In this document: piece after piece, positions 43,325 to 49,033 of the stretch
How positions within the stretch are numbered: position 1 is the first letter of the stretch
Layout of the letters: each line of letters begins with the position of its first letter
NCBI RefSeq assembly: GCF_057098645.1
Contig: NZ_CM169472.1
Direction: 5' to 3' (one strand)
DNA length: 64,000 nucleotides
The notes under the pieces: model-generated
The model's input: the letters and a program-made list of their open reading frames with translations, nothing else
What the model was told of the DNA's origin: nothing
Databases searched by the model: none
Translations under genes and position numbers: made by a program

Positions 43325-44677
43325 GTGTTTATTGGTTTTGATTACGGTACAGCAAACTGTTCAGTGGCGGTCATGCGTGACGGTAAACCGCAATTACTGA
43401 AAATGGAAAACGACAGCACGCTGCTGCCTTCAATGCTTTGCGCGCCAACGCGTGAAGCAGTAAGTGAATGGCTGTACCGCCATCATGATGTTCCGGCAGA
43501 CGACGATGAAACGCAGGCGCTGTTATGTCGGGCGATTCGTTATAACCGCGAAGAAGATATCGATGTTACGGCGAAAAGCGTGCAGTTCGGTCTTTCCTCA
43601 CTGGCACAGTACATTGATGATCCAGAAGAAGTGTGGTTTGTGAAATCACCAAAATCGTTCCTCGGTGCCAGCGGCTTAAAACCGCAGCAGGTAGCGCTGT
43701 TTGAGGATCTGGTCTGCGCAATGATGTTGCACATTCGCCAGCAGGCGCAGGCGCAGCTGCCAGAAGCGATTACTCAGGCGGTGATTGGTCGCCCGATCAA
43801 CTTCCAGGGGCTGGGCGGCGATGAAGCAAACGCCCAGGCGCAAGGGATTCTGGAACGCGCGGCGAAGCGTGCCGGATTCAGGGACGTGGTATTCCAGTAC
43901 GAGCCGGTCGCGGCTGGGCTGGATTACGAAGCCACCTTGCAGGAAGAAAAACGGGTGCTGGTGGTGGATATCGGCGGTGGTACGACTGACTGTTCATTGC
44001 TGCTGATGGGACCGCAGTGGCGTTCGCGTCTCGATCGTGAAGCCAGCCTGCTGGGTCACAGTGGTTGTCGTATTGGCGGTAACGATCTGGATATCGCCCT
44101 GGCGTTTAAAAACCTGATGCCACTGCTGGGTATGGGTGGCGAAACCGAAAAAGGCATCGCCCTGCCGATCCTGCCGTGGTGGAATGCGGTTGCCATCAAC
44201 GACGTACCTGCGCAGAGTGATTTCTACAGTAGTGCCAACGGTCGTCTGCTTAACGATCTGGTACGCGATGCCCGCGAACCGGAAAAAGTGGCCCTGTTAC
44301 AGAAAGTCTGGCGTCAGCGTTTAAGCTATCGCCTGGTGCGTAGCGCAGAAGAGTGCAAAATTGCTCTTTCAAGCGTAGCGGAAACCCGCGCCTCACTGCC
44401 GTTTATCAGCAATGAACTGGCTACGCTGATTAGCCAGCGAGGGCTGGAAAGCGCCCTCAGCCAGCCACTGACGCGGATTCTGGAACAGGTGCAACTGGCC
44501 CTGGATAACGCCCAGGAAAAACCGGACGTTATCTACCTGACCGGCGGTAGCGCCCGTTCTCCGCTGATTAAAAAAGCGCTGGCAGAACAGTTGCCGGGCA
44601 TTCCGATTGCAGGCGGCGATGACTTTGGCTCCGTCACCGCCGGGCTGGCACGCTGGGCGGAAGTGGTGTTTCGTTAA
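43325..44677 (+). CDS. yegD: Hsp70-family (actin-like ATPase) protein YegD
   Basis: 450 aa; MFIGFDYGTANCSVAV and DIGGGTTDCSLL motifs of the Hsp70/sugar-kinase fold. Confidence 0.88.
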   Translation: MFIGFDYGTANCSVAVMRDGKPQLLKMENDSTLLPSMLCAPTREAVSEWLYRHHDVPADDDETQALLCRAIRYNREEDIDVTAKSVQFGLSSLAQYIDDPEEVWFVKSPKSFLGASGLKPQQVALFEDLVCAMMLHIRQQAQAQLPEAITQAVIGRPINFQGLGGDEANAQAQGILERAAKRAGFRDVVFQYEPVAAGLDYEATLQEEKRVLVVDIGGGTTDCSLLLMGPQWRSRLDREASLLGHSGCRIGGNDLDIALAFKNLMPLLGMGGETEKGIALPILPWWNAVAINDVPAQSDFYSSANGRLLNDLVRDAREPEKVALLQKVWRQRLSYRLVRSAEECKIALSSVAETRASLPFISNELATLISQRGLESALSQPLTRILEQVQLALDNAQEKPDVIYLTGGSARSPLIKKALAEQLPGIPIAGGDDFGSVTAGLARWAEVVFR

Positions 44678-44689
44678 TTGAAAAATGGC

Positions 44690-46639
44690 TCAGCAGCGGC
44701 TTAAATCTGCCTGCGCCTGAGCCAGTTTTTCTGCTGCCTGACGTAACGGTTCCATCAACGGCATGGTCCGTGCTGGAGCATGAAGGCGGAATCGCTGCAA
44801 CTCTGTCGCGCCGACTGTCAACGCCGATTCCAGCCGATGTCGTTTGGCGGTCATTTTCGCCATTACCGCTTGTCTGTCTGCTGGCGTTATCGCTTCATTC
44901 GGCCTGAACACAAAACGGCGTTCACAGCTCGCTTTCCAGTCGATAACCGCCTGGGTCAGATGGTCGCCAAACCCTTTCACTTGCTTAACGCCACGACGGG
45001 TAACATCTGCGGCTGTTTCAATACCAAAAGACCGTAACGCCGCTTTACGCGCAGGGCCAACGCCGGGAATAGAGGCAACATCAATAAAAAATCCCTCCAG
45101 AAACTTCTGCTTCTGCCGTTCCCTTGCAGTGTCATGAAGTGCTGCCAGAGCGCGTTTCTCTTCTTCCGGTAACCCGAGAATTTCGTCCTTCATTTTTTCG
45201 AGCATCGTCCGTTTGGCGATAAAACCTTCCAGGCCGCCTACCTGCTGGATCTGGCGGACTAAATGGTCATAGTCCATTTTCGCACGATTAAATGCCTCAC
45301 GGCGTTGCTGAACTTCTGCTTTGTACGCTTTGCTTGTCAGACTGCCAATAATCCAGATAGCCGCCAGCACAGGAACCAAAATAATATAACGCGGTTCTGC
45401 CTGAAGGCCGCAAAGCAGCAGCGATAATGCTGACAGTGCGATCTCAAGCAGAATGATGTATTCGCGCCGTAACAGGCCTAAAGGAAGCGGCCTGCCAGTC
45501 GGTTGGAAATGATCGGGTAATGGCAGTTGCAATGCTGGCGGTGCTACTGACGCCATCACCATCGCCCAGACTTTCGCCAGCACAAAATTCCCGCCGGTGG
45601 TAATGACCTCTTCGCCGAGATCAATAAAATAGATAACGCCTTGATTATCCAGCGTACACCACGGGCAGTCGGTCAAATGAGCGGGATAAACATGCATTGC
45701 CGAAACGGTACATTTCTTTAACTGTTGGCGTAGAGAATCCAGTGCTGCTACCCACGCTTTAGCCGTCGGACGCCCGGTTGCTACACCACTTTCCGTAAAC
45801 GCCTGCTGAAACATGGCTTCAACATCGCCCGGTAACATCGACAGCGGAATCGATCGTGGCGGCGGTTTTAAACCACGTCGCTGATTATCTGACGCGTAGG
45901 CATAACGGAAATGGGCAATATCCGTCTCCAGCGCATTACCCGCATCAGAGATAAGCGGCACACCAGAATAAGGATGCCGCCCACCAAACAAGACGTGAAA
46001 AATAAGCAACGCAAGGCCAAAATTATCGTGATTCGCGGTACGTTCAAAACCGACAAATGATGGCAAGGTTTGTAGCTCTGGCGGCGTAAAATGCGACACG
46101 CCGACTTCGCATAAATGCAGTGTGCCATTGGCGTTAATCTGAAAGGAGTCACTATCGATCAACACCACTTTGCTGTCGCGACCTACCATAAAGCTGTTCT
46201 GGTTTACGTCCCCCACGACGTGCCCGTGCTCGTGAACCGTAGCAAAAGATGAAGCAATATTGCGCGCAACATAGAGTAGAAAATCCCACGCACAATGAGG
46301 GTAACTCTGGCGACGATGTGCCGGGCTATAGATCATATGAATCGGTTCTTTACCAGAAACTTTTGGCATCATAAAACCGATAACTTTTCCGCCTCGCCCA
46401 CCGTGAAGCGTTGCCTGCGGCCAGGCGACATAATTCAACAACTGCGCGTCAGCTGTCGCAGCCATAAAGGCAAGTTTGTCCTGTTTTAAGGCGGGTGGCG
46501 GCGTGTGATAAATCTTGGCGACGCTATCGGCAAACTCCTCGATATCATAAACCGCACCTTCACCGCCTTTGCCCAGTTCACGGCCTGGCGTAACGCACTC
46601 ACCAGTAGCAGTATATAAAGTGGGTTTCATGGTAACCAC
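44690..46639 (-). CDS. yegI: Eukaryotic-like Ser/Thr protein kinase YegI (kinase domain, two central hydrophobic helices, C-terminal HhH-like segment)
   Basis: 649 aa; glycine-rich loop LGKGGEGAVYD; hydrophobic stretch near residues 390-430; IPGVGPARKAAL helix-hairpin-helix-like motif; start overlaps pphC stop. Confidence 0.85.
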   Translation of the reverse strand: MVTMKPTLYTATGECVTPGRELGKGGEGAVYDIEEFADSVAKIYHTPPPALKQDKLAFMAATADAQLLNYVAWPQATLHGGRGGKVIGFMMPKVSGKEPIHMIYSPAHRRQSYPHCAWDFLLYVARNIASSFATVHEHGHVVGDVNQNSFMVGRDSKVVLIDSDSFQINANGTLHLCEVGVSHFTPPELQTLPSFVGFERTANHDNFGLALLIFHVLFGGRHPYSGVPLISDAGNALETDIAHFRYAYASDNQRRGLKPPPRSIPLSMLPGDVEAMFQQAFTESGVATGRPTAKAWVAALDSLRQQLKKCTVSAMHVYPAHLTDCPWCTLDNQGVIYFIDLGEEVITTGGNFVLAKVWAMVMASVAPPALQLPLPDHFQPTGRPLPLGLLRREYIILLEIALSALSLLLCGLQAEPRYIILVPVLAAIWIIGSLTSKAYKAEVQQRREAFNRAKMDYDHLVRQIQQVGGLEGFIAKRTMLEKMKDEILGLPEEEKRALAALHDTARERQKQKFLEGFFIDVASIPGVGPARKAALRSFGIETAADVTRRGVKQVKGFGDHLTQAVIDWKASCERRFVFRPNEAITPADRQAVMAKMTAKRHRLESALTVGATELQRFRLHAPARTMPLMEPLRQAAEKLAQAQADLSRC

Positions 46640-47388
46640 AGCGCCAGTGCCAACGTTTTATCATCATCGGTACGCTCGTTTACCGCCGGGCTCGACAAAA
46701 ACTGCTTTAACAATTCAGGTAATAAATCGAGTTGTTCCTGCGTTGCTGCCGCCAGTCCATTGAAAAACGGGGTAAAGAAAGGCACATGCGGAGAATTATC
46801 CAGCATATTTAACGCCAGTCGCTGAATACCATCCGTAAATGCTGCAACTTTATGCGCACGCTCAGTGCTGGTGAAAGTTTCCAGTCTGGAAACAGCATCT
46901 TCATCGCTAATGAAATGCGTCATATTGGCATATTCACCCACCATCGGCGTGAGCAGCAGTTCCAGACCACGACCAAAATCCACCACTACACCGCCGTCGC
47001 CAATTTGCATAATCAATGTGCCGTTAGCCGATGAAATCAATCCCAGAAACGTGCAGGCAAAATCGCGAACTGCTAATGCTTTGGCTTCTGCCTCGGCAAA
47101 AAGTCGTTGACGAATGGTCAGTACCATATTTGTGGCGAGGACATCATTAAGCCCCAATTCACCGTCCTGTACTTTTTGCACCATAAACGCCATCGCTTCA
47201 TTGACGGCGAGCTTCGCGCCTTCTCCTCCCTGCGAAACGCTACCTGCGCCATCAGCAAGGAACATCACCAGTAATGGCTGCTGGTCATTTAGCCAGGCAA
47301 CCTGCATCTGGCAGGCATCCTGACAAGGTAAATCAGCGCTAATGTGCGACGTTCCAACAGCGGATGCATAAACCAGACGCCAGCTCAC
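46627..47388 (-). CDS. pphC: PP2C-like Ser/Thr phosphatase PphC (YegK)
   Basis: 253 aa; conserved position between yegL and yegI with overlapping start/stop codons. Confidence 0.82.
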
Positions 47389-48044
47389 ACTGACGTCCAG
47401 CCTTTTGGCGCTTCCAGCACAACTTCCGTTCCCGGCGTGGAGCGGGAAACCGAACGCAGTGAACTGGATAACCAGCTAAACAGTTCGCGGAATTGTAATC
47501 CCTGCAGAGACAAAGGCTGACGGACGCTGATTTGGGCCAGCGTCTTCATATCCGCCCCCTGAACACCGATGGAAAAGAAGGCAAACTTCTTATCTTCTTC
47601 CCCCTGAAACACTTTGTTGGCGGCAGCCTGCCACTCATCGGTTGGAGCGCCATCGGTGATCAGGAAAATCCACGGGCGATAATACGAAATACCATTTGCA
47701 CGATACTCACGTTTCCGCTCCTCTACCATATCCAGGGCTTTGGTAATGGCGGCACCCATTGGTGTATCGCCCTGGGCAAACAGAATGGGCGGGAAAAAAT
47801 TAGCGGCGCTGGTAAAGGGTTGTTCCACATGCACCGGGCCGAACGTCACAATACCAAGTTCCACTCTTTTTAAGGCCAGCGGGTCGGCAAGCAGCTCATC
47901 GCGAAAGGTAACCAATCCGGCGTTAAGTTCATTAATGGGTCTACCGTTCATCGAACCAGAAACATCCAGCAGCAAAATGCAGGGGCAACGTGGTTCCGGG
48001 TTACTGGCAAAATCGCTGGTGGCAAACGTGATTTGTTCGCTCAT
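47385..48044 (-). CDS. yegL: von Willebrand factor A (TerY-like) domain protein YegL
   Basis: 219 aa; MIDAS motif DVSGSM near the N-terminus. Confidence 0.85.
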
Positions 48045-48225
48045 AAGAAATCCTTTCTTAGAGAATTATTGAGGTCCGGTATCATACCGATTGCAATAAT
48101 GAAATAAGAGCAAACGAAGAAACTTTCAGAATTAGGCCCGGCGGCGCAGAAAATTTTGCTATTCGCCTCGCAAGAACGGAGAGCCGTCGATTGACACTAA
48201 GGGCGGAGTGACATAATTACAGGAG

Positions 48226-48376
48226 TGAGGGTTAGGGAGAAGTTTCCCCCTCCCCCTGGTGTTCTTAGTAAGCCTGGAAGCTAATCACTAAGAGTATCAC
48301 CAGTATGATGACGTGCTTCATCATAACCCTTTCCTTATTTAAAAGCCCTCTTCTCCGGGAGAGGGTTCCCCGTTTT
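48226..48376 (+). ncRNA. sibA: Sib antisense sRNA, copy 1 (sibA-like antitoxin RNA); ends approximate
   Basis: Sigma70-like promoter (TTGACA 48191-48196, 17-bp spacer, TAATTA 48214-48219); fully antisense to ibsA; hairpin 48346-48365 followed by a T-rich run. Confidence 0.7.
48265..48324 (-). CDS. ibsA: Type I toxin peptide IbsA (19 aa, MMKHVIILVILLVISFQAY)
   Basis: Translated directly from the minus strand; matches my recollection of K-12 IbsA (from memory, not searched); too short to appear in the ORF track. Confidence 0.85.
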   Translation of the reverse strand: MMKHVIILVILLVISFQAY

Positions 48377-48561
48377 AGCGTCCCGCTGAAATCGTCGGCT
48401 TACCTCCTTTCGCCCTGAATGCAGTCTATCGCTGACTTGCGGATAAAATAGTTTCAAGTGTGATTATTGCGTAACGACTCGCAAAGAATATTTGCTGGCA
48501 GGATCGCAGACTGCAAAGCCTGCAGATTGACAATCTTATCGTGAAGGCATACTTTCAGGAG

Positions 48562-48705
48562 TGAGGGTAGAGCGGGGTTTCCCCCGCCCTGGTAGTCTTA
48601 GTAAGCGGGGAAGCTTATGACTAAGAGCACCACGATGATGAGTAGCTTCATCATGACCCTTTCCTTATTTAAGGCCCCTTCCTCGGGAGGGGCTTTCCCG
48701 TTTCA
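48562..48705 (+). ncRNA. sibB: Sib antisense sRNA, copy 2 (sibB-like); ends approximate
   Basis: Promoter TTGACA 48527-48532 / TACTTT 48550-48555; antisense to ibsB; terminator hairpin about 48674-48693 then T-rich run. Confidence 0.7.
48598..48654 (-). CDS. ibsB: Type I toxin peptide IbsB (18 aa, MMKLLIIVVLLVISFPAY)
   Basis: Translated directly from the minus strand; matches my recollection of K-12 IbsB (from memory, not searched). Confidence 0.85.
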   Translation of the reverse strand: MMKLLIIVVLLVISFPAY

Positions 48706-48889
48706 GCGTCCCGCTGAAATCTTCGGCTTACCTCCTTTCGCCCTGTATGCAGTCTATCGCTGACTTGCGGATAAAATAGTTTCAAGTGTGATTATTGCGT
48801 AACGACTCGCAAAGAATATTTGCTGGCAGGATCGCAGACTGCAAAGCCTGCAGATTGACAATCTTATCGTGAAGGCATACTTTCAGGAG

Positions 48890-49033
48890 TGAGGGTAGAG
48901 CGGGGTTTCCCCCGCCCTGGTAGTCTTAGTATGCTGGGTAGCTAATCACTAAGAGCACCACGATGATGAGTATCTTCATCATGACCCTTTCCTTATTTAT
49001 GGCCCCTTCCTCGGGAGGGGCTTTCCCGTTTCA
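48890..49033 (+). ncRNA. Sib antisense sRNA, copy 3 (third tandem module); ends approximate
   Basis: Promoter TTGACA 48855-48860 / TACTTT 48878-48883, identical to copy 2; terminator hairpin about 49003-49022. Confidence 0.65.
48926..48982 (-). CDS. Ibs-family type I toxin peptide, third copy (18 aa, MMKILIIVVLLVISYPAY)
   Basis: Translated directly; differs from the copy-2 peptide at positions 4 and 15 (L to I, F to Y). Confidence 0.75.
   Translation of the reverse strand: MMKILIIVVLLVISYPAY

Follow-up and report, generated by a model that had tools for sequence, protein, structure and literature searches.

The stretch of DNA analysed here (the window, 64,000 nucleotides of contig NZ_CM169472.1 of the NCBI RefSeq assembly GCF_057098645.1) belongs to an Escherichia coli O145:H28-like chromosome, with a 100% match to O145:H28 over the query segment 44400–47700, and carries the operon yegL-pphC-yegI, which can be placed in the TerY-P family and may constitute a phosphorylation switch. 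The gene yegL (47385..48044, minus strand) encodes a 219-aa TerY-like vWA protein and was identified from the list of open reading frames (ORFs), the RefSeq annotation and a Pfam search (VWA, 1.6e-9); pphC, also named yegK (46627..47388, minus strand), encodes a 253-aa PP2C-type Ser/Thr phosphatase (Pfam PP2C_2, 4.4e-48); and yegI (44690..46630 including the stop codon, minus strand) encodes a 646-aa membrane-anchored Ser/Thr kinase, as indicated by RefSeq, the literature and an AlphaFold2 model. On the plus strand and convergent with yegI lies yegD (43325..44677), which encodes an Hsp70-family protein (NCBIfam NF008673, 807 bits). The ORF list and RefSeq agree with the preliminary description of this DNA on the presence and location of all four genes, and the RefSeq gene order is dgcE, alkA, yegD (plus strand), yegI, pphC, yegL (all minus strand), an ibs/sib toxin–antitoxin array and mdtA. 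This is an ordinary, already named E. coli locus; earlier publications cover its genes and the coupling between them, the activities of the enzymes, the membrane topology and the polymorphism of yegJ, and the kinase-HhH (helix-hairpin-helix) architecture is present in database names.

The three genes overlap at both junctions. The GTG start of pphC lies over the TGA stop of yegL in a 4-nt GTGA overlap (47385..47388, minus strand), as was described earlier, and the ATG start of yegI lies over the TGA stop of pphC in a 4-nt ATGA overlap (46627..46630, minus strand). The latter overlap had been given as 13 nt, a length that requires the most upstream in-frame GTG (46639), while the ATG at 46630 gives the 646-aa YegI; Rajagopalan & Dworkin also place the YegI start at the ATG, as in RefSeq, and report the ATGA overlap between pphC and yegI for B and O157 strains. 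In the family alignment, YegI M1 is aligned across all homologues, and the three extra residues resulting from the GTG start are unconserved; among 52 related loci, the −4 junction is the commonest one, both between the vWA and PP2C genes (32/52) and between the PP2C and kinase genes (17/52), and most other junctions are within 20 nt. Since M1 aligns in the homologues and the −4 junction is the commonest, the ATG start of yegI is favoured, and the pphC/yegI overlap is most likely 4 nt rather than 13 nt; with either start, the genes overlap. Being kept across phyla, this arrangement is not due to chance, and the coupling of the three genes, suggested earlier from the overlaps, is real and conserved well beyond chance. 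The Shine–Dalgarno-like AAAGGA (48051..48056, minus strand), read from the sequence 6 nt upstream of the yegL ATG, is the sole obvious independent ribosome-binding site of the operon; a simple scan for promoters and terminators gave nothing beyond shuffled expectation.

The concept of the TerY-P triad dates from 2012 (Anantharaman, Iyer & Aravind), and its definition is used here as given in secondary summaries of that work; the canonical ter operon of an IncHI2 plasmid served as the reference, its products being TerY1, TerX, TerY2, TerY3 (which has a TerY-C domain), a PP2C of 545 aa and a kinase of 499 aa. A BLASTP comparison of YegL and TerY1 showed 31% identity over 181 residues (E 8e-27), and the three TerY paralogues of ter plasmids are recovered by tblastn. 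Over its full length, PphC can be aligned to the C-terminal half of the PP2C from the ter operon (E 2e-6), and the hhalign comparison of the YegI family profile with the ter-operon kinase (probability 98.6%, E 5.9e-16, 331 columns) covers the whole kinase plus the CPWC/CPYC motif. The operon thus contains a TerY-like vWA protein, an adjacent PP2C and a triad-family kinase with a following putative zinc ribbon, all encoded contiguously and co-directionally; linkage to ter or restriction genes is absent at the E. coli locus, where no ter or metal-handling genes stand beside the triad (the RefSeq neighbours being yegD, the sib/ibs array and mdtA), and homologous cassettes elsewhere are found near McrBC, type I restriction-modification (RM), GmrSD and Wadjet genes. 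As all three proteins are homologous to the ter-operon triad by direct comparison, the sequences identify the yegL-pphC-yegI operon as a genuine member of the TerY-P family, in agreement with the architecture proposed earlier from its domain trio.

YegL contains a complete metal ion-dependent adhesion site (MIDAS) motif (D27-x-S29-x-S31, T94, D130), the residues of which are conserved. It is the best conserved of the three proteins, with 31% of its positions at least 95% invariant vs 14% in PphC; across phyla, the identity to the E. coli proteins is mostly 57–86% for YegL (about 50% in three Planctomycetota loci), 31–65% for PphC and 30–62% for YegI. PphC is an active PP2C that removes phosphates from YegI (Rajagopalan & Dworkin).

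The structural architecture of YegI was considered using an AlphaFold2 model (mean pLDDT, the predicted local distance difference test, of 90), and the invariance of residues was judged in 39 homologues from many phyla. The N-terminal part (residues 1–301, 45728..46630, minus strand) is a divergent Hanks-type kinase domain with a P-loop at G20–G25, K39, VGD141-V-N143, DSD159–161 instead of DFG, and PPE185; the model superposes on PknA, PknB and BRAF (Foldseek probability 1.00, template modelling score 0.65–0.71), and the family profile matches TTK and PknE in the PDB. The Pfam Pkinase profile has no match in the E. coli YegI itself and is positive for 17 of the 39 homologues. K39, D141, N143, D159, D161, S162 and P184-E185 are invariant in the 39 sequences and present in the YegI of the window; in its bilobal fold, its ATP-binding Lys and its Asp residues for catalysis and metal binding, the protein is of the Hanks type. 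The deviations comprise VGD for HRD, DSD for DFG and a Ser (S146) in place of the catalytic-loop Asn in the E. coli clade. Rajagopalan & Dworkin showed that YegI is an active Mn2+-preferring Ser/Thr kinase, the activity of which is abolished by K39D, D141N and changes in the DSD motif; this settles in the affirmative the question, raised in the preliminary description, of whether the kinase has its catalytic residues. According to the literature, YegI autophosphorylates activation-loop serines with second-order kinetics.

The kinase domain is followed by a zinc-ribbon-like module (residues 304–329, 45644..45721, minus strand; C307-x5-H313-x8-C322-P-W-C325), modelled as a β-hairpin plus a helix, where the putative ligands C307, H313, C322 and C325 are invariant in 39/39 homologues. 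The conservation suggests that this CHCC module may bind zinc; it can be regarded as the counterpart of the TerY-P kinase zinc ribbon, since it aligns with the Cys-rich CPYC segment of the ter-operon kinase. A poorly conserved linker leads to a membrane hairpin (residues 389–435, 45326..45466, minus strand), indicated by hydropathy, the model and the published topology and composed of two hydrophobic helices (approximately 389–408 and 413–435, with hydropathy peaks at 389–393 and 413–417); Rajagopalan & Dworkin described YegI as a two-pass inner-membrane protein with cytoplasmic N and C termini (PhoA-LacZ topology). Long coiled-coil helices connect the hairpin to an (HhH)2 domain (residues 515–571, 44918..45088, minus strand), in which two h-x-G-h-G motifs, with the hairpins IPGVGP (521–526) and VKGFGD (551–556), are packed into a single five-helix domain; the IPGVGPARKAAL motif occupies residues 521–532. 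Both the two central hydrophobic helices and the HhH-like C-terminal motif had been noticed earlier, and both were recovered in the model. The (HhH)2 is of the type that binds DNA backbones, and the modelled fold makes it a predicted DNA-binding tail. It is followed by a long C-terminal helix of about 60 residues (583–644 in the model, 44699..44884, minus strand), which includes the published autophosphorylation sites S602 and S644. Database names already carry the HhH part of YegI ('DNA-binding helix-hairpin-helix protein with protein kinase domain', 'helix-hairpin-helix domain-containing protein'); the papers of Rajagopalan & Dworkin mention neither zinc, nor HhH, nor TerY, and no open-access paper naming both 'yegI' and 'TerY' was found in the collection searched.

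Klebsiella, Piscinibacter, Chromobacterium and many metagenomes contain full-length YegI homologues with 55–63% identity. When 1.84 billion representatives were searched with the profile, 6446 YegI clusters (50% identity) were obtained at E ≤ 1e-30; most of the top 150 are 636–672 aa long and align with the profile along its entire length. Among GTDB species, scanned with one genome each, 49 loci were detected in about ten phyla, including Proteobacteria, Actinobacteria, Acidobacteria, Cyanobacteria, Planctomycetota, Nitrospira, Myxococcota, Chloroflexota and others, and, in nearly every locus with enough flanking sequence, the homologues of YegL and then PphC are encoded upstream of the kinase on the same strand; the few departures from this order are insertion-interrupted loci or incomplete contigs. 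In an Actinomycetota metagenome-assembled genome (locus L043, 7687–9929), the PP2C and kinase genes are about 2.2 kb apart, with other ORFs between them, at the same junction that holds yegJ in E. coli K-12.

All-against-all clustering of the flanking ORFs found no fourth universal partner gene; the extra clusters were dismissed as antisense shadow ORFs in GC-rich genomes or as genes confined to close relatives. This bears on the suggestion that the triad and the Hsp70-like YegD make up a four-gene module. The two sides are neighbours in convergent orientation, 12 bp separating their stop codons, and no terminator intervenes (window 44675–44692); the yegD-yegI pair is listed among E. coli overlapping-transcript (excludon) candidates and, according to the literature, overexpression of yegJ in K-12 strongly raises yegD mRNA; however, a yegD homologue adjoins the triad solely in Escherichia and is absent from the flanks of about 50 non-Escherichia loci, where no other gene family recurs with the cassette as a fourth member. 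Such a module is most improbable, and a functional link between the triad and yegD, implied by their joint listing in the preliminary description, was rejected given that the adjacency is confined to Escherichia.

Outside Escherichia, 83 plasmid records contain the cassette, among them many from Agrobacterium and Rhizobium as well as Pseudomonas megaplasmids such as pQBR103, and the neighbours of the cassette include mobility genes (integrase, Tn7-like genes, insertion sequence elements). In Piscinibacter, it is accompanied by genes of an SLFN-type helicase, MazG-like, McrA-N/NOV_C and WYL/BrxR regulator proteins and Wadjet JetB; in Chromobacterium, by AbiH, a PifA-like KAP NTPase and Tn7-like genes; in Klebsiella spallanzanii, within 8 kb, by GmrSD, SymE and type I RM. 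On one metagenomic contig, the cassette directly adjoins type I RM and Mrr; McrB and McrC (by Pfam only) are found near it in Georgenia, an integrase island with SbcCD-like genes and a PDC-S06 protein in Paraburkholderia, three transposases in Singulisphaera, and a ParE/Phd pair with a caspase-like protease in Nitrospira. Nine of the ten neighbours submitted to PADLOC match defence families with E < 1e-5, the confirmed ones including JetB, PifA, AbiH, GmrSD-like protein, type I restriction endonuclease, PDC-S36 and PDC-S06. In this small sample of about a dozen loci, taken without a background control, the surroundings have the pattern of a mobile conflict-associated cassette, often located among defence genes.

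A bolder reading takes the cassette as an unrecognised stand-alone module directed against phages or plasmids, where the (HhH)2 tail of the membrane-tethered YegI would sense foreign DNA entering at the inner membrane and would trigger a kinase-driven abortive or interference response. Perhaps such an immune module could have been overlooked, since the operon is silent in culture, the defence-finder models miss it and yegJ splits it in K-12; were this reading true, the module would be present in nearly every E. coli. It is regarded as doubtful. Carriage by phages was considered separately: no close match to the triad was found in 50,697 phage records. PHROGs v4 contains near-identical full-length families for YegL, PphC and YegI (phrog_28389, 37072 and 37888, respectively; 486–1530 bits), which probably represent a predicted prophage overrunning its boundary rather than a phage origin, and phage carriage was rejected on these grounds.

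Within the species, 5416 of 5426 complete E. coli genomes (99.8%) have the locus, always at the same place. The dN/dS ratios (nonsynonymous to synonymous substitution rates) in Escherichia are 0.02–0.08 for yegL, about 0.09–0.14 for yegI and 0.14–0.18 for pphC, and all three genes are under purifying selection; relaxed selection was rejected as the cause of a single yegI outlier (0.46), the genome in question having a premature stop. The fixed core position and the strong purifying selection, especially on YegL, agree with a domesticated housekeeping stress switch that would have no phage or plasmid role in Escherichia and might respond to DNA damage, to metal, oxidative or tellurite-type stress (a function proposed for ter operons), or to the envelope state. 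The kinship with the ter-operon triad points in the same direction, as do the recurrent yegI mutations in the long-term evolution experiment, which imply a fitness effect without phage, and a genome-wide overproduction screen, in which YegL and YegI, each separately, raised DNA damage. On the other hand, the patchy, plasmid-borne occurrence of the cassette outside Escherichia, amid defence and mobile genes, does not resemble a housekeeping pattern, and the E. coli locus has no ter or metal-handling neighbours. A domesticated stress switch is possible, and is kept as the main, tentative alternative.

As was stated, with some uncertainty, in the preliminary description, yegJ is present in K-12 between pphC and yegI and absent from the window; a comparison with K-12 confirmed this, and Rajagopalan & Dworkin also place yegJ between yegI and pphC in K-12. 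The literature confines it to 'K strains only', but the yegJ segment was found in 1934 of 5426 complete E. coli genomes (36%), i.e., more widely. The segment is about 790 bp long and AT-rich, and it replaces 56 bp of the junction (BW25113, L002 6238–6962 vs window 46575–46632), being a replacement and not a simple insertion. It changes the last two residues of PphC (LP* to AE*) and gives YegI a different yet family-like N-terminus over the first ~18 residues (MKTNIKVFTSTGELTTLGR), both reading frames staying open in K-12; the window carries the intact coupled operon, which is the majority form. The dS between the window and K-12 is 0.28 for pphC, 0.17 for yegL, 0.08 for yegI and 0.03 for yegD, and the much higher values in pphC and yegL than in yegI or yegD suggest a recombined tract. 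YegJ matches no NCBIfam or PHROG family, and the K-12 YegJ was rejected as a relative of the 153-aa ORF downstream of the pQBR103 kinase, there being no similarity between them.

In 36% of the complete genomes, the replacement breaks the coupling of pphC to yegI and alters the adjoining ends of the two genes, which could mean that the operon is what is left of an element acquired horizontally long ago, silent, decaying and useless in present-day E. coli; the undetected laboratory expression and the truncation of yegI in two Escherichia species representatives are compatible with decay, as are the many shorter YegI clusters, possibly assembly fragments. Nevertheless, dN/dS is well below 1 for all three genes, the locus is kept in almost all complete genomes, YegI and PphC are both active in vitro and the K-12 replacement leaves both frames open, so decay appears very unlikely. 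The truncated alleles belong to sp. MOD1-EC7003 and sp. E1V33 (L013, 8680–10620, and L014, 4509–6460), where yegI has a stop at codon 460 or a frameshift after approximately residue 514; both alleles lose the HhH tail and retain the kinase and the membrane hairpin. Many YegI clusters of 400–550 aa in the protein database may be similar alleles or assembly fragments.

The preferred reading, to which a probability of about 0.55 is given, is that the three genes encode a self-contained, translationally coupled phosphorylation switch of the TerY-P type, triggered by DNA. PphC would hold the membrane-tethered YegI off until the (HhH)2 tails bind DNA near the membrane, either incoming or damaged, bringing YegI molecules together; trans-autophosphorylation of YegI would then outpace PphC, and the active kinase, for which YegL would be a MIDAS-dependent adaptor or substrate, could phosphorylate cellular or foreign targets. 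The cassette encodes no nuclease or other effector, and the kinase itself would therefore be the output; the outcome would be a conflict or stress response, such as growth arrest or interference with DNA transactions, and not nuclease attack. The DNA-damage scores of YegL and YegI in the overproduction screen fit a DNA-related output. A role of this switch in defence against phages or plasmids, suggested by the homologous cassettes, is plausible, though it should be treated with considerable reserve.

Several observations weigh against the switch and, in particular, its defensive role. The locus is a core one with a fixed site, flanked by yegD and the sib/ibs array, whereas defence islands are typically variable, and yegI is broken before the HhH domain in the two species representatives mentioned above; in one contig, only housekeeping genes surround the cassette, and the sample of defence contexts is small and uncontrolled. 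E. coli B strains have an intact operon and yet, presumably, plate classical T phages. The profile check against defence models was formally negative: with the TerY-P model of PADLOC (PADLOC-DB v2), YegL gave a marginal match (TerY, E 0.0095, 13.5 bits), PphC had no PADLOC match even at E ≤ 10, and YegI had solely weak generic kinase-core matches, PD-T4-6 (E 2e-4) and MkoA, none of them named TerY-P. According to the literature, expression of the operon has been undetected under laboratory conditions. The PADLOC result says little, since the canonical ter-plasmid TerY1–3 and PP2C, used as a control, also match no PADLOC model and the ter kinase obtains only weak generic kinase matches; PADLOC was accordingly rejected as a decisive test of membership. 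The yeg operon is not the TerY-P subtype encoded in PADLOC, whose kinase reportedly ends in an oligonucleotide/oligosaccharide-binding (OB) fold; the YegI model contains no β-barrel and so lacks the OB fold of the PADLOC/Gao TerY-P. As a practical warning, the PADLOC TerY-P model is narrow and misses the canonical ter TerY proteins, the phosphatase and the YegI family with its more than 6000 clusters at 50% identity.

A comparison with known systems indicates the same general plan as in the IncHI2-type ter operon, with shared families, the order vWA, PP2C, kinase, and measurable homology for each protein; however, the ter operon has TerX and three TerY paralogues, together with a phosphatase of 545 aa and a soluble kinase of 499 aa, whereas E. 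coli has a single vWA protein, a minimal PP2C of 253 aa and a kinase to which the membrane hairpin, the coiled coil and (HhH)2 are added, with no ter genes nearby. A related stand-alone vWA/PP2C/Ser-Thr kinase triad has been reported, according to secondary summaries of Gao et al. 2020, as active against T7-like phages; it likewise consists of three genes, but its kinase reportedly ends in an OB fold and YegI ends in a transmembrane hairpin plus (HhH)2. Bell et al. (eLife 2024) described TerY-P modules attached to Type II/III-A CoCoNuT (McrBC-family) systems, where the kinase is also followed by a zinc ribbon and McrBC-type genes are associated; a YegI-type triad lies 2.4 kb from McrB/McrC in Georgenia, but the E. 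coli locus has no McrBC, helicase or HEPN partner, and YegI-type kinases have the extra membrane and HhH modules. The pairs PknB-PstP and PrkC-PrpC resemble YegI and PphC in the bilobal kinase fold, the activation-loop autophosphorylation reversed by the PP2C of the same operon and the dimer-type kinetics, while YegI differs in having no extracytoplasmic sensor domain, both termini in the cytoplasm, atypical motifs and a preference for Mn2+. In PD-T4-6, a kinase-based abortive-infection defence, the Ser/Thr kinase itself is the effector, as proposed here for YegI, but the similarity is a weak and generic one of the kinase core, and PD-T4-6 has no vWA or PP2C partners. The staphylococcal Stk2, a defence of the same class, also has the kinase as the effector and no vWA or PP2C partners.

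Beyond what has been published, the present analysis adds the explicit homology of yegL-pphC-yegI to TerY-P, the conserved putative zinc ribbon and fold-level support for (HhH)2, as well as the conservation of the cassette across phyla, its defence-island context, the exclusion of yegD from the module and the wider distribution of yegJ. The physiological role of the eukaryotic-like pair YegI/PphC is a modest question, which the TerY-P identity, the zinc ribbon, the (HhH)2 tail and the defence neighbours make concretely testable.

Some further features were observed around the triads. A 69-aa ORF is located directly upstream of the vWA gene in distant taxa (L003, 5719–5928 and 5932–6474; also L009, L010, L016, L032, L058 and L060), with 73–87% identity between Burkholderiales and Planctomycetota, and is followed by a SNase-like nuclease gene in the Burkholderiales loci; neither Pfam nor NCBIfam gives a family for it, several function-unassigned PHROGs match its N-terminal module, and some cassettes may include it as an accessory. 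YegI-type triads repeatedly have DUF4236 proteins nearby (L010, 1962–3182; L061, 8589–8753; L063, 6838–8046; L065, 2813–4021), and a DUF4236 protein is also encoded beside terW in the IncHI2 ter operon. In the window, three tandem SIB antitoxin RNAs with ibs toxin genes lie between yegL and mdtA (48191–48339, 48527–48669 and 48855–48997, plus strand; Rfam, 141–145 bits); with four ibs genes in the closest RefSeq genome and two in K-12 BW25113, the copy number of this unit of about 330 bp differs among strains.

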